Source: an uncultured Clostridia bacterium (GTDB lineage Bacteria; Bacillota; Clostridia; Christensenellales; UBA1242). Taken from it: DNA of 64,000 nt. A program made the translations under genes and the position numbers. The stretch covers positions 55,503-119,502 of the forward strand of contig CANRIT010000003.1 of assembly GCA_947630745.1 (NCBI GenBank). The letters run 5' to 3'. Shown here in pieces: positions 3,292-61,904 of this stretch. Within the stretch, counting starts at the first letter, position 1, and each line of letters opens with the position of its first letter. The notes beneath the pieces were generated by a model, which ran no database searches, had not been told where the DNA came from, and saw only the letters and a list, made by a program, of their open reading frames with translations.

Positions 3292-3976
3292 CCGCTATTA
3301 TTTTGAAAAGCAGACCGCGGACAGCATATATTTTGTCGGGCAAGAAGCAAAACACTTAAGCCTTGTCCGCCGCGCATCTGTGGGGGAAGAATTGGTGGGC
3401 TTTAACGGCGATGGGTATGACTATCTTGCCAAAATTTCTTCAATCACAAAACAAGAAGTGGTGGCAAAAATCATTTCAAAAACTTTAAATCGCGCAAAAA
3501 CCAATAAAAGGGTGGCGGTGTTTTTGGCAATGATTAAAAACGATGCACTTACCGATGCAATTGACCATTTGGCGGAACTTAATGTGGGTGCAGTGTACTT
3601 GTTTAAAGCGGATAGAAGTGTGGCAGTAGTTGACCAAAAGAAGTTGGAAAAACTTGCCGCAATTTCACTTCAAACCAGCAAACAGTGTGAACGCGCGGAT
3701 GTTATGAAGATTAGCATAATTGACAAGGGCGAAATTAAGGCAAAAGCACAACAATTTAAAAACACCTTTTTTGCTTACGAAGATGCCAGCAACAACATTC
3801 AACCATTTAACGGCGATTATGCGGTTATAATCGGACCGGAAGGCGGATTTAGCCAAAATGAAGTGGAATATTTTTCTTCATTTGCAAAAACAATTACGCT
3901 AGGCAAAACCATATTACGCGCCCCAGTTGCCGCACTTGTTGCAGTAAGCAAACTGGAAGAGAAAAGCGAAAGCTGA
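3284..3976 (+). CDS. rsmE: 16S rRNA (uracil1498-N3)-methyltransferase RsmE
   Basis: 230 aa with a C-terminal IIGPEGGFS SPOUT motif. 8-nt overlap with rpe. rsmE-mtaB synteny as in Bacillus yqeU-yqeV. Confidence 0.75.
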   Translation: MDNRYYFEKQTADSIYFVGQEAKHLSLVRRASVGEELVGFNGDGYDYLAKISSITKQEVVAKIISKTLNRAKTNKRVAVFLAMIKNDALTDAIDHLAELNVGAVYLFKADRSVAVVDQKKLEKLAAISLQTSKQCERADVMKISIIDKGEIKAKAQQFKNTFFAYEDASNNIQPFNGDYAVIIGPEGGFSQNEVEYFSSFAKTITLGKTILRAPVAALVAVSKLEEKSES

Positions 3977-12025: not shown

Positions 12026-12165
12026 TATCCATAAAGAGTGTGCGAGGGACAGCCCCGTTGACCACACAGCAACCTGCTTTAAGCAAGGTGCTAATGGCTG
12101 ACCGATGGGTTTAATTTGATTTTTGCGCTCATCGGTAACGATGGGTTTTTTCATCTCTTTATGGT
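12026..12165 (+). promoter_or_regulatory. SAM-I (S-box) riboswitch leader of metK
   Basis: P1 CCATAAAGAG (12029-12038) pairs with CTCTTTATGG (12155-12164). Conserved core GAGGGA..GCCCC..GCAACC..AAGGTGCTAA present. Extended -10 TGTTATAAT at 12012-12020. Sits upstream of metK. Confidence 0.8.
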
Positions 12166-18939: not shown

Positions 18940-19016
18940 GGGGGATTAGCTCAGTTGGCTAGAGCACTTGCCTTGCAAGCAAGGGGTCATCGGTTCGAAT
19001 CCGATATTCTCCACCA
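18940..19016 (+). tRNA. tRNA-Ala (anticodon TGC), CCA encoded
   Basis: Manual cloverleaf with acceptor GGGGGAT/ATTCTCC including G3:U70, anticodon loop CTTGCAA, T-loop TTCGAAT. Confidence 0.9.
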
Positions 19017-19124
19017 TTAAATAAGTCGTTATGCGATTTATTTAAACTTCCTTAAAGAAGCTAAGCATTTTGTAAGTCCGCCTCCTTGGGCTTACAAAAC
19101 AGCTGCGGCTGTAAGGTTTTACAA

Positions 19125-19201
19125 TGAGATGTAGCTCAGCAGGTTAGAGCACCACCCTGATAAGGTGGGGGTCGGTGGTTCGAGTCCACTCATCTCAACC
19201 A
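19125..19201 (+). tRNA. tRNA-Ile (anticodon GAT), CCA encoded
   Basis: Manual cloverleaf with acceptor TGAGATG/CATCTCA, anticodon stem CCACC/GGTGG, loop CTGATAA, T-loop TTCGAGT. Confidence 0.88.
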
Positions 19202-58337: not shown

Positions 58338-58763
58338 TTAAACTCCAAGAGTTTTTTCTTTATTAAGGTTTATTTCAAATTCTTGCGAATAATGCGGATT
58401 GTTTGTTGGAGCAGGGAAACAATATTGTTTTGTAACTTTGTCAAAATTTACTTCCACATCAACACCAGCATTTTTCTTAACAAAGGCGGAAATCTTTTCT
58501 TCATCCAAACCTTCTTCGCCAAACATCATAACATAAGCTTTTATGCAATTTGCAATTTTGCTAGTGGTTGTTTTAAATAATAGGTCATCAGAAACAGTGT
58601 GAACATGGATGTTGTAAATTGCGCTAATTCCTGTGCCAACTTCGCGGTTAAGAGTTTCCACAACTTTGCCATCTTTATCTTTTTTGTGAACTTCGGTTTT
58701 TTCTTCTAAGATTTCATCCCTTATAACAATTAATTCACTTAAATGATTTTGTACTTTTGCCAT
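58338..58763 (-). CDS. Hypothetical protein (141 aa), paralog A
   Basis: Own promoter, SD AAGGAG, terminator. Shares the segment SA.Y.....(~20 aa)...A......M.GE..L.E..I..F.K.N.G......... with the adjacent 140-aa protein. Confidence 0.6.
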   Translation of the reverse strand: MAKVQNHLSELIVIRDEILEEKTEVHKKDKDGKVVETLNREVGTGISAIYNIHVHTVSDDLLFKTTTSKIANCIKAYVMMFGEEGLDEEKISAFVKKNAGVDVEVNFDKVTKQYCFPAPTNNPHYSQEFEINLNKEKTLGV

Positions 58764-58855: not shown

Positions 58856-59278
58856 TTAAACATTTTTGGTTGTGGTAGGGGCTAAAAGGTTAATTTCATC
58901 TGAATAATATTTTCCAACCCTGTATGTGGAAATATATGTTTTGTTGGCTTCGGTAATTTTTAAGTTTTTGATAGCAATGCCAGTGTTTTCTTTTAAAAAT
59001 TTTGCAATAATATTTTCCTCTAAACACTTTTCGCCTTGCATAACAATTATTGCCCTTAAAGCATTATCTAAAGCAAAAAAATCTTCGGTTGCCAGTTGTT
59101 TATTAAATTCATATAATACATTAACAATATATTGCGCAGATACCGCTTTTCCAGCATCTAAATCAATTTTACCGGTTATTGTATCACCCGTGCTTGCGCG
59201 ATATTTGTGCAAATATACAGTTATTTTATTTGGCAGCACTTCAGGTCTATTAATAGTTGTAAACAATTTATATTCCAT
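58856..59278 (-). CDS. Hypothetical protein (140 aa), paralog B
   Basis: Own promoter, SD AGAGG. Collinear similarity to paralog A, for example IIVMQGEKCLEENIIAKFLKENTGIAIKNL against YVMMFGEEGLDEEKISAFVKKNAGVDVEVN. Confidence 0.6.
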   Translation of the reverse strand: MEYKLFTTINRPEVLPNKITVYLHKYRASTGDTITGKIDLDAGKAVSAQYIVNVLYEFNKQLATEDFFALDNALRAIIVMQGEKCLEENIIAKFLKENTGIAIKNLKITEANKTYISTYRVGKYYSDEINLLAPTTTKNV

Positions 59279-59554: not shown

Positions 59555-59555
59555 A

Positions 59556-59581
59556 TTAAAAAAAAACGGATTTGTAATCCG
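59556..59581 (-). terminator. Rho-independent terminator after tRNA-Glu
   Basis: The reverse strand reads CGGAT-tacaa-ATCCG followed by T9. Confidence 0.7.
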
Positions 59582-59583
59582 CT

Positions 59584-59658
59584 TGGTAGCCCTATGGGGA
59601 TTCGAACCCCAGTTCCCACCGTGAGAGGGTGGTGTCCTAACCACTAGACGATAGAGCC
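59584..59658 (-). tRNA. tRNA-Glu (anticodon CTC), CCA encoded
   Basis: Acceptor GGCTCTA/TAGGGCT (two G-U pairs), D-region GTCTAGTGGTTAGGAC typical of tRNA-Glu, anticodon stem CCACC/GGTGG, loop CTCTCAC. Confidence 0.8.
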
Positions 59659-59857
59659 ATAAATTTTTCCACGCAGCCATGTGTAAACACATGGGGTGCG
59701 GAAAATTTATGGATACTATATTTAATTTTCTTCGTAGGTTTTGCTTGCTAATATAGACCGTGCAGATGACTATTTATGGGATAAGCATAAGAAATTGTAG
59801 GTTCTATATTTTACTTAACTTCGTAGGCTTTCTTTAAAATATAGGACCATAAACATG
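59659..59857 (-). ncRNA. ~200-nt structured leader co-transcribed with tRNA-Glu (two repeated hairpin modules plus an imperfect palindrome)
   Basis: A promoter at 59864-92 points toward tRNA-Glu. Module stems are 59800-11/59837-48 and 59711-22/59750-60. Each loop carries CTTCGTAGG (+ strand). A palindrome at 59659-59710 abuts the tRNA 5' end. Confidence 0.45.
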
Positions 59858-59863
59858 CAATTT

Positions 59864-59892
59864 ATTATAACACATATTAAATATATTTTCAA
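59864..59892 (-). promoter_or_regulatory. Sigma-A promoter (TTGAAA-17-TGtTATAAT) driving the tRNA-Glu leader
   Basis: The reverse strand reads TTGAAA (59892-87), a 17-nt spacer ending in TGT, then TATAAT (59869-64). Confidence 0.6.
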
Positions 59893-59982
59893 CTGTTTTT
59901 CAACAAAATTTTCAACAAATTTAAAAAAGGGTATTGCCAAATCAAAAATTGTGTGTTAATATAAGGGCAAGGAGACGAAATT

Positions 59983-60297
59983 ATGCAACAAATCAGTTTA
60001 GATGACATTAAAGCATTTTTACAGCAAAAAGTTGGTGTTGAATGGAAGGGCGAGGTAATGCTTGCAAATCAAACCTTTACATTTGCAAGGTCGGCTGAGC
60101 AGATTTTAAATCAACCAATTTCCTTTAAAGTATTTAAGGGTGAAAATTTTGGCTGGTTTACCTTTATCATCAACGAAAATCAGTTTAAATCGGTGTTTAT
60201 TTGCACAAAAAATGGGCAAGAATTTTTGGTTGATGGAATTGATTTTTCAAGCAAATGGCGCGATTTCATCACACAAGAAAGCACAAAAAATGCCTAA
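59983..60297 (+). CDS. Hypothetical protein (104 aa)
   Basis: Promoter TTGCCA-17-TAATAT, SD AAGGAG, terminator downstream. No motif recognised. Confidence 0.55.
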   Translation: MQQISLDDIKAFLQQKVGVEWKGEVMLANQTFTFARSAEQILNQPISFKVFKGENFGWFTFIINENQFKSVFICTKNGQEFLVDGIDFSSKWRDFITQESTKNA

Positions 60298-60327: not shown

Positions 60328-60371
60328 TTTCTACAAAATGCGATAATTTGTAAACAATTTTTGTCGATATA

Positions 60372-60380
60372 TGTTATAAT
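60372..60380 (+). promoter_or_regulatory. Extended -10 element (TGTTATAAT) placed for leaderless comEC mRNA
   Basis: GTG 60387 lies 6 nt after the -10 box. No SD, and no good -35 at 17 nt. Confidence 0.45.
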
Positions 60381-60386
60381 TTAAGC

Positions 60387-61904
60387 GTGAAACGACATTG
60401 GTTTAATTTTAGGGCGCTTTGTTTGATATTTATCTTCCTACTTTTAGGGAGTTTGTTTGGCTTTTACATATACACAAAATTTGTTGGCTGCCTAATTGTT
60501 GCGCTGATAATTTTTGTTGGTTCGCTGGTTGTGGCGATAGTCAACAAAAAGGCATCAAATTTTTTAATACCAATAATCTGCTTTGTCATCGGGTTTTGTT
60601 GTTACAGCGTGGCAATTGACAATTTCAACAAAGGTCAAGATAAAATTTTGCCAACCACGGTAAGCGCGCGCATCTACAATGTTGGGCTAACTGATGGCAA
60701 AACGCTTAGTTTGTGTGTTGACAGCCTAAAATTTGACGGCAGAAAAGTTGATGGCAGGGCGCGGCTTTACATTGTTGACTACCAAAACCGATTTGATGAT
60801 TTTTCAATTGGCACAACAATAGATTTTGAGCCGTACAGCGTTGATTTGGTCAATTTGTTGGTGGGCGACATTCCGTCCGCATACTATTACAAAAACGATT
60901 TTAAATACCAAATTTACACTGGATATTCGCTTGTCAACATTACGGGCAATGACAAAACGTTTGCGGAAAAACTTCAACTTAAAATAAAGGAAAACTTGTC
61001 AAACGGCTTGTCAAACGAAAATGTGGAAATTGCATACGCTGCCATGTTTGGCGACAAATCGCTTATGCCAAGCGAGCAGTATTCAAATTACCAACTGTCG
61101 GGCGTGGCGCACATTTTAGCTGTGTCTGGCTTGCATGTAAGCATAATTGTTGGCGTGCTGTACGCTTTCTTTAAACTTATACATGTAAAAGGTTGGTGGA
61201 GATTTGCAATTTTAACCGCATTTTTGCTGTTTTACATGTATTTGTGCAGCTATTCAGTGTCGGTTGTGCGCGCCTCGATAATGTCGATAATCATGTTGCT
61301 TGCTCCGCTTATTGGGCGAAGATACGATACGCTATCCGCCTTGTCAGTTGCTGGCATAGTCATCTTTTGCACCAATCCGCTTTGTGTTTACGATGTTGGC
61401 TTTTTGATGAGCTTTTCGTGCGTGCTTGGCATTGCGTTTATGTTTAAGCCAATTGCAAGCGCAATATCCAAAACCCACCTTCCAAAATGGCTAGGGGATA
61501 GCGTGGCAATTTCAACTGCCACCATGGTATCCGTACTTATAGTTATGGCGTATTTCTTTGGCAGAATAAACATTGTGTCCGTATTTGCCAACATTTTGAT
61601 TTTGCCAATGTTTTCGCTTGCCTTTTCAATTGTTTTTGTGCTTGGATTTTTGTCGCTTATTGCACCGTTTATAACATACATGCTGCTGCCGCTAAACTTT
61701 TTGTTTAACATAATCAACAGCATGACATTTGTTATTGCAAATTTAAAGTACGTTAACTACAACACAGCCAACCTAAATTACTATGTTTGCCTTATATATT
61801 TCTTTTTATTGATGATTTTGGGCAGAATTTGCACGGCAAAACGGGGTGAAAAAGTGGTAACATCCCTTACAATAGTTGCACTTTTGATGGCATGTTTGGT
61901 ATAA
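60387..61904 (+). CDS. comEC: ComEC/Rec2-family DNA internalization channel protein (no C-terminal metallo-beta-lactamase domain)
   Basis: Polytopic membrane protein with SGVAHILAVSGLHVSII competence-domain motif. 505 aa. comEC-holA synteny. Confidence 0.8.
   Translation: MKRHWFNFRALCLIFIFLLLGSLFGFYIYTKFVGCLIVALIIFVGSLVVAIVNKKASNFLIPIICFVIGFCCYSVAIDNFNKGQDKILPTTVSARIYNVGLTDGKTLSLCVDSLKFDGRKVDGRARLYIVDYQNRFDDFSIGTTIDFEPYSVDLVNLLVGDIPSAYYYKNDFKYQIYTGYSLVNITGNDKTFAEKLQLKIKENLSNGLSNENVEIAYAAMFGDKSLMPSEQYSNYQLSGVAHILAVSGLHVSIIVGVLYAFFKLIHVKGWWRFAILTAFLLFYMYLCSYSVSVVRASIMSIIMLLAPLIGRRYDTLSALSVAGIVIFCTNPLCVYDVGFLMSFSCVLGIAFMFKPIASAISKTHLPKWLGDSVAISTATMVSVLIVMAYFFGRINIVSVFANILILPMFSLAFSIVFVLGFLSLIAPFITYMLLPLNFLFNIINSMTFVIANLKYVNYNTANLNYYVCLIYFFLLMILGRICTAKRGEKVVTSLTIVALLMACLV

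Follow-up and report, generated by a model that had tools for sequence, protein, structure and literature searches.

A conserved modular hairpin array between the promoter and the tRNA-Glu(CTC) gene of uncultured Clostridia, a candidate tRNA leader RNA

In the 64,000-nt stretch of clostridial DNA analysed here (the window), a tRNA-Glu(CTC) gene is separated from its promoter by a chain of hairpins that recurs in two other species. Leaders of bacterial tRNAs are usually short, from a few nucleotides to a few dozen, and are regarded as disposable. The leader described here measures 200-300 nt, consists of conserved modular hairpins under apparent selection, belongs to no described RNA family and was found in uncultured gut Clostridia related to Christensenellales. 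The interpretation we favour, which we hold to be possible rather than probable, is that the array is a co-transcribed modular 5' leader RNA which is released by RNase P, its M hairpins being sequence-specific recognition sites. The features of the unit are as follows.

59864..59892, minus strand: sigma-70-type promoter of the tRNA-Glu unit; TTGAAA and TATAAT are separated by 17 nt, the latter preceded by TG-n (11 of 12 positions match).
59800..59848, minus strand: hairpin M_A (module 1 of the earlier note), 14-bp stem interrupted by a single C.A mismatch (tRNA strand), 21-nt loop AAGAAAGCCTACGAAGTTAAG.
59760..59799, minus strand: spacer P', a degenerate P copy, essentially unstructured, which keeps only the AATTTCTT start.
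59711..59759, minus strand: hairpin M_B (module 2), stem of ~10 bp with two bulges, loop CCTACGAAG as in M_A.
59659..59710, minus strand: hairpin P, long and irregular: 4-nt loop on a 7-bp inner stem, then a conserved internal region (GCAC...TGCG) and an outer stem of A-U pairs.
59584..59658, minus strand: tRNA-Glu(CTC), CCA encoded (ARAGORN; RF00005, 61.1 bits).
59555..59584, minus strand: intrinsic terminator of the tRNA-Glu unit directly after CCA, 9-bp stem followed by a T run.

The -10 element is located 205 nt from the 5' end of tRNA-Glu, and the predicted transcription start at ~59857 would give a leader of ~200 nt. A promoter scan revealed no minus-strand promoter-like site between the promoter at 59864..59892 and tRNA-Glu, and the other tRNA units of the window have their promoters ~5-45 nt upstream of the tRNA. 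Both results bear out the earlier note on this DNA, which had described the distant promoter as the sole good one on the tRNA strand, ~200 nt upstream, and the promoters of the remaining tRNA units as close. Three independent ENA assemblies contain the locus with 100% identity, which rules out an assembly artefact; the organism is present in the ENA samples ERZ27249610, ERZ27249358 and ERZ27249352. Note that three direct copies of GTTGAAAA, 11-12 nt apart, are present on the minus strand of the window (59885-59920), the last of them including the -35 element of the tRNA-Glu promoter; a second TTGAAAA is found upstream of the promoter in outgroups as well. These copies may serve as sites for a regulator, as alternatives to the -35 element or as an UP-like element. 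Note also that the first acceptor pair of tRNA-Glu(CTC) is G1.U72, unusual for bacterial tRNA-Glu, in every species examined (the window and the tRNAs of L001-L042).

Read on the tRNA strand, the gap between promoter and tRNA contains four elements in the order M_A, P', M_B, P. The arms of M_A (59800-59813 and 59835-59848) are 93% complementary, and the 3' arm of P ends at tRNA position -1. Thus the stem of module 1, the doubly bulged module 2 and the palindrome adjoining the tRNA 5' end, all proposed from the sequence beforehand, were found again, and the paralogy of the two modules was borne out as well, one window M copy being degenerate. Equally real is the identical 9-mer pointed out in both loops: the 64-kb window contains CTTCGTAGG two times, once in each module, with 0.06 occurrences expected and no case of two in 100 shuffles. 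Because its first bases (AATTTCTT) are common to both, P' can be recognised as a decayed copy of P, so that the array is built from a two-part unit, M-P, of ~100 nt. RNAalifold proposed a nested pairing of the 5' arm of M_A with the 3' arm of M_B; this is possible since the arms are all alike, but the local M_A hairpin pairs better in the window.

Relatives were sought by means of ComEC. A contig scan gave only L001, and the protein collection gave three ComEC versions with >60% identity, namely the window's own, that of L001 (uncultured Clostridia MAG, rabbit; 68%) and that of L002 (Logan assembly; 66%). The three species are about equally distant from one another (ComEC 66-68%), and since only three such proteins were found, the clade is tiny in current data. 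The order M-P'-M-P-tRNA is present in all three, with extra M-P units in L001 and L002. The following elements correspond to those of the window.

L001 92-140: orthologue of M_A, 82% identical to window M_A.
L001 173-220 and L002 3561-3609: orthologues of M_B.

Four species at a greater distance (ComEC identity 44-51%), among them Candidatus Onthoplasma (L041; Christensenellaceae), have tRNA-Glu(CTC) divergent from ComEC and possess neither M nor P; from the outgroups, the minus orientation of the tRNA-Glu unit is ancestral. A homologous promoter, CTTGAAAA-N13-TATGYTAnnnT, is located upstream of tRNA-Glu(CTC) in L002, L003, L037, L039 and L041, so that the promoter assignment does not depend on the consensus match alone. 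Its distance from the tRNA is 8-34 nt in L003, L037 and L039 and 190 nt in L041 (561-745), where the intervening DNA is rich in A/T, has no relation to M or P and is unstructured (z = -0.88); weaker promoter-like sites were also observed inside the L041 gap. The sole tRNA-strand promoter of L002 is likewise situated upstream of the array. As the outgroups keep the promoter without M or P, the array arose in this lineage alone, by insertion or expansion downstream of an ancestral tRNA promoter, and, judging by the genomes compared, it is confined to one small clade.

The number of M copies is two in the window, three in L002 and at least three in L001. L002 carries an additional P and a truncated M beside the promoter, and L001 at least one additional M-P unit, its contig ending inside the repeat, within a 77-nt exact duplicate of M_B-P (100% identity). 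Furthermore, four of the six M copies start with GGYYYTAT, match the first nine tRNA bases at 6-7 positions and follow a P-type element, as the tRNA itself does; these M starts and the preceding P-type element suggest that the duplicated unit took in the first ~8 nt of the tRNA. In L001 (1-349), array and tRNA-Glu are inverted as a whole relative to the 104-aa ORF and ComEC. All these features are consistent with a DNA-level palindromic tandem repeat without RNA function, whose ~100-bp M-P unit would have expanded locally by slippage or duplication, including the start of the tRNA, and whose hairpins would arise and be mended when the lagging-strand template, while single-stranded, undergoes template switching within the strand or gene conversion; on this view the cell tolerates the leader without using it. 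Template switching can create and maintain hairpins with apparent compensatory changes in the absence of selection (PMC8794818). If the array is such a self-maintaining DNA palindrome array, it would be a clean natural case of hairpins preserved without RNA function, which bears on how covariation is read.

We nevertheless consider the repeat explanation rather unlikely, mainly in view of the pattern of conservation. The third codon positions of ComEC are 49% identical between the window and L001, and a control intergenic region shows 54% identity, whereas M_A retains the 82% given above and M_B reaches 90% (L001 vs L002). Identities among P orthologues are 56-72%, and those among P' orthologues (53-58%) are at the neutral level. 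Conservation extends to the M loops, which are asymmetric and non-palindromic. The contrast between conserved M and neutral P' speaks for selection acting on M and against a cassette that was recently transferred as a whole; this mosaic points to selection on sequence and not on palindromy alone. The architecture has, moreover, been kept across species with near-saturated synonymous sites.

P shows a different pattern, its pairing being retained while the sequence changes. In the three sequences 92.5% of its cells are paired, compared with 26-49% in slid controls, and 6 of 18 pairs are changed on both sides; the covariation score was reached by 2 of 500 shuffles. Counted by hand outward from the loop, five of the seven positions of the inner stem differ via double changes and none is broken. 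For M, both bases have changed in 4 of 14 pairs, and its covariation score was reached by 5 of 500 shuffles. With three species, the covariation of both elements rests on few events. A covariation search in relatives had been recommended as a check by the earlier note, and its outcome is positive insofar as the hairpins are conserved in two other species and compensatory changes are present.

These data also bear on a reading of M as double-stranded DNA operators, at which a dimeric regulator would roadblock tRNA-Glu or control the divergent 104-aa ORF and ComEC. The M arms are indeed sequence-conserved and symmetric, and the array is located between divergent transcription units, but the arms are 21-25 nt apart with a conserved, asymmetric loop between them, and the array of L001 points away from ComEC. 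In addition, the sequence of the P inner stem is wholly changed with its pairing kept, a pattern of nucleic-acid folding rather than of protein-DNA contacts. The operator reading, put forward at first as a pair of protein-binding DNA sites, is thus disfavoured by the changing P stem and the conserved asymmetric loops, and we regard it as very improbable.

As M is conserved in its stem and in its asymmetric loop sequence, it most likely is a sequence-specific recognition site. The 9-mer itself is confined to the window species, the relatives carrying CCTTCGAAG, CCGTTGGAG or CCTTTGGAG instead, so the motif first noticed in the loops is no general feature of the array. Targets complementary to the loop motif, for which a search had been proposed, do not exceed chance in the window, and the idea of an sRNA or sponge acting through its loops is therefore unsupported. 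For the loop 14-mer with up to three mismatches, the window contains 10 matches versus 5.0 +/- 2.3 expected, three of the ten being inside the array. What stands of the proposal of a structured RNA co-transcribed with the tRNA is a real structured element between the tRNA and its own promoter; targeting through the loops is unsupported.

Strandedness had been left open in the earlier note, and with good reason: the leaders of all three species fold better than dinucleotide shuffles on both strands, and in all three the opposite strand folds better than that of the tRNA.

Window leader: z = -3.46 opposite strand, -2.35 tRNA strand.
L002 leader: z = -3.78 opposite strand, -2.58 tRNA strand.
L001 leader: z = -7.4 opposite strand, -4.29 tRNA strand.

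The same holds for 12 of 13 individual elements; the opposite strand has 23 G.U pairs versus 7 on the tRNA strand, and the summed energy difference amounts to -37.7 kcal/mol versus -13.5 +/- 8.0 for composition-matched shuffles. Positions 3-4 of the M stem, read on the tRNA strand, are a C.A mismatch or unpaired in nearly every copy. The module 1 mismatch is C.A on the tRNA strand and a G.U pair only if the plus strand is read, exactly as had been observed. Similarly, P contains a CGC/GUG helix, without variation among the three species, that has G.U on the opposite strand where the tRNA strand has C.A. The better folding of the opposite strand counts against a leader RNA, as do the differing copy numbers and the degenerate M of the window.

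Consistently better folding, conserved G.U pairs that are C.A mismatches on the tRNA strand (e.g., in the P helix) and the inversion of the locus in L001 would fit a functional strand opposite the tRNA, forming either an antisense RNA over the leader or single-stranded DNA hairpins for a recombinase, an HUH-type enzyme or a replication factor. Against this, neither the window nor L002 has a promoter-like site on the opposite strand ahead of the array, which is preceded there by intrinsic terminators. What lies upstream on that strand changes from species to species: the window has tRNA-Trp, L001 the 104-aa ORF region and L002 a protein gene. No Pfam match to a transposase or recombinase was obtained in the flanking ORFs scanned, nor any match in phage and plasmid collections (blastn, distant mode). 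Unlike REP or IS200-derived elements, the array has no other copies in 82 kb of the three genomes. A functional opposite strand therefore seems improbable to us.

Replication may contribute to the asymmetry. The better-folding strand of the window (plus) and of L002 is the G-rich leading strand, i.e., the lagging-strand template, as the DNA-repeat explanation would have it, and leading-strand C-to-T bias could explain the asymmetry in these two species. The array of L001, however, is inverted relative to the strand of positive GC skew, which is still the ComEC strand, and yet its asymmetry is the strongest of the three and favours, as in the others, the strand opposite the tRNA. This weakens replication mutation bias as the cause and likewise speaks against the DNA repeat.

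The resemblance of the M starts to the tRNA 5' end allows two further readings. According to the first, the M hairpins are what remains of tRNA-Glu copies that have decayed, or of integration events that struck the tRNA repeatedly, and have no function today. An HTH regulator and a phage-type integrase adjoin the 3' end of tRNA-Glu(CTC) in two outgroup contigs (L003 2123-3892 and L004 2036-3805), which identifies this tRNA as a mobile-element integration site there, and the GGYYYTAT starts behind P-type elements would be in line with such an origin. The M interior, however, is no more similar to tRNA-Glu than shuffled controls (z -0.8 to 1.6), only the first ~8 nt being tRNA-like; no tRNA-like element could be detected in M, as ARAGORN finds only the true tRNA and no tRNA-clan Rfam family matches at E-values up to 10. 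Decay would also not keep stems of 10-14 bp with compensatory changes or an interspecies identity of 82-90%. There is accordingly only a slim chance that M derives from tRNA relics.

According to the second, the M hairpins mimic the acceptor stem of tRNA-Glu and would either be excised by the tRNA-processing enzymes as small hairpin RNAs or act as decoys for an acceptor-end enzyme or toxin. This reading is based on the GGYYYUAU start shared with the tRNA 5' strand and on the P-type hairpin before each M. We judge it to be doubtful, somewhat more so than a functional opposite strand; if true, it would represent a new class of tRNA-linked mimic RNA made from the tRNA's own promoter.

Rfam 15 at gathering thresholds identifies only tRNAs and a SAM riboswitch elsewhere in the window and has no family for the array; with E-values up to 10, the window and L002 leaders yield only far sub-threshold, miRNA-type noise on the hairpins. 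No further M or P copies were found by nhmmer and covariance model across 64 + 8.3 + 9.5 kb of the three genomes, the P covariance model matching only the three tRNA-Glu leaders. The array contains no terminator or attenuator (the scan finds only two terminators, downstream of tRNAs, and no T run follows P or M) and no conserved small ORF. IMG/VR scans with the M pattern and with the P-plus-tRNA pattern gave chance matches only, and the degenerate M pattern gave 30 matches in JGI metagenomes, all of them single chance matches without GG...CC feet and without a nearby tRNA. The array is not of the CRISPR type either, as the P and P' elements between M copies are homologous to one another and conserved between species.

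Several motif-based identities were considered for the loops and rejected. The window loop CUACGAA resembles the loop of tRNA-Arg(ACG), a TadA-type site, but the relatives lack UACG, which excludes an anticodon-loop mimic. CsrA-type GGA loops, a loop GAG codon pairing with the tRNA anticodon and a T-box-like UGGN are each represented in only some copies or species. A boxA-like sequence is a partial resemblance on the opposite strand only and is not conserved.

The neighbourhood of the array deserves a few remarks. ComEC starts (GTG or ATG) are located 6-7 nt after a TGnTATAAT-type -10 element and have no Shine-Dalgarno sequence (window 60365-60389, L001 ~790-813, L002 ~3945-3964); judging from this arrangement, the ComEC mRNA appears to be leaderless, in the clade and in at least one outgroup, L037. 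The 104-aa ORF (59983-60297) belongs to no Pfam family and has one homologue cluster among 5.8 billion clusters. Two tandem ORFs on the minus strand between RNase Y and tRNA-Trp, 58338-58763 (141 aa) and 58856-59278 (140 aa), are apparently paralogous and have no significant Pfam match. Elsewhere in the window, a SAM-I riboswitch is present on the plus strand (12026-12147, 65.5 bits), and tRNA-Ala(TGC) and tRNA-Ile(GAT), which as a pair are usual in the spacers of rRNA operons, form a unit by themselves under a promoter of their own (18940-19201), no rRNA being present in the window.

Returning to the leader RNA, we propose the following course of events. Transcription would start at the ancestral tRNA promoter and produce the ~200 nt leader ahead of the tRNA; that the leader is transcribed at all is deduced from the single conserved promoter upstream of the array. 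The leader would fold co-transcriptionally into local hairpins, with M_A ~10 nt from the 5' end, followed by M_B and P, and with P' remaining unstructured between the M hairpins. RNase P cleavage at tRNA position +1 would presumably free the leader as a separate hairpin-rich RNA. The M hairpins most likely would be recognised in a sequence-specific manner by a putative protein, and the leader could thus serve as a multivalent platform for binding, or as a decoy, whose expression follows that of the tRNA. P, for which pairing and a small internal motif suffice, would most likely be an insulating or processing hairpin that lets the tRNA fold apart from the upstream modules. Release by RNase P, protein binding to M and any cellular role are conjectural parts of this scheme.

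Among known systems, several share single traits with the array. Leader and spacer stems of rRNA operons (RNase III stems, boxB-boxA-boxC) also form a long structured region between a strong stable-RNA promoter and the mature RNA, and P resembles them in being conserved for pairing and not for sequence. Unlike these, the array has no stem enclosing the mature RNA, precedes a single tRNA gene and has no Rfam match, and on reading the sequence no boxA was found on its tRNA strand. Type III toxin-antitoxin arrays (ToxI) are likewise tandem short structured RNA repeats directly after a promoter and before another gene. In the present case that gene is a tRNA and not an endoribonuclease toxin, the tRNA and its terminator follow the array directly with no conserved ORF, and the units are bipartite, ~100 nt long and non-identical. 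The proposed mechanism recalls MALAT1-mascRNA of mammals, where tRNA 5' cleavage sets the 3' end of an upstream structured RNA; that system is eukaryotic and contains a tRNA-like element rather than a functional tRNA, so that the resemblance is by analogy only.

With regard to form, the alternating hairpins, the variable copy number and the imperfect palindromes pairing better on one strand are reminiscent of REP/BIME elements of enterobacteria, BOX elements of pneumococcus and IS200/IS605-derived PATEs. Genomes with such elements carry tens to hundreds of scattered copies along with a RAYT or TnpA-type enzyme, whereas M and P occur solely in the tRNA-Glu leader (82 kb, three genomes) with no such enzyme gene nearby.

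With regard to the proposed working, the closest parallel is 3'ETS-leuZ, reportedly a short Hfq-bound segment that base-pairs with the sRNAs RyhB and RybB. According to the passage of PMC9514646 that cites Lalaouna et al. 2015, it is the 3' external transcribed spacer of the E. coli glyW-cysT-leuZ tRNA operon, a non-coding segment which, as proposed for the array, is made along with a tRNA from the tRNA promoter, and which is freed by tRNA processing and has a function of its own. In contrast to 3'ETS-leuZ, which lies 3' of the tRNA, the array is situated 5' of it as a chain of long hairpins of 200-300 nt whose release is predicted, and no complementary target for its loop was found in the window. 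The array is therefore nearest to 3'ETS-leuZ in its proposed working and to BIME/BOX in its form, with the defining features of neither. Tentatively, and a little short of calling it probable, we designate it a tRNA 5' external transcribed spacer that is long, modular and conserved and has a putative role. If it is a functional RNA, it would be a 5' counterpart to the few known functional spacers of tRNA operons and a candidate for RNA-protein work.
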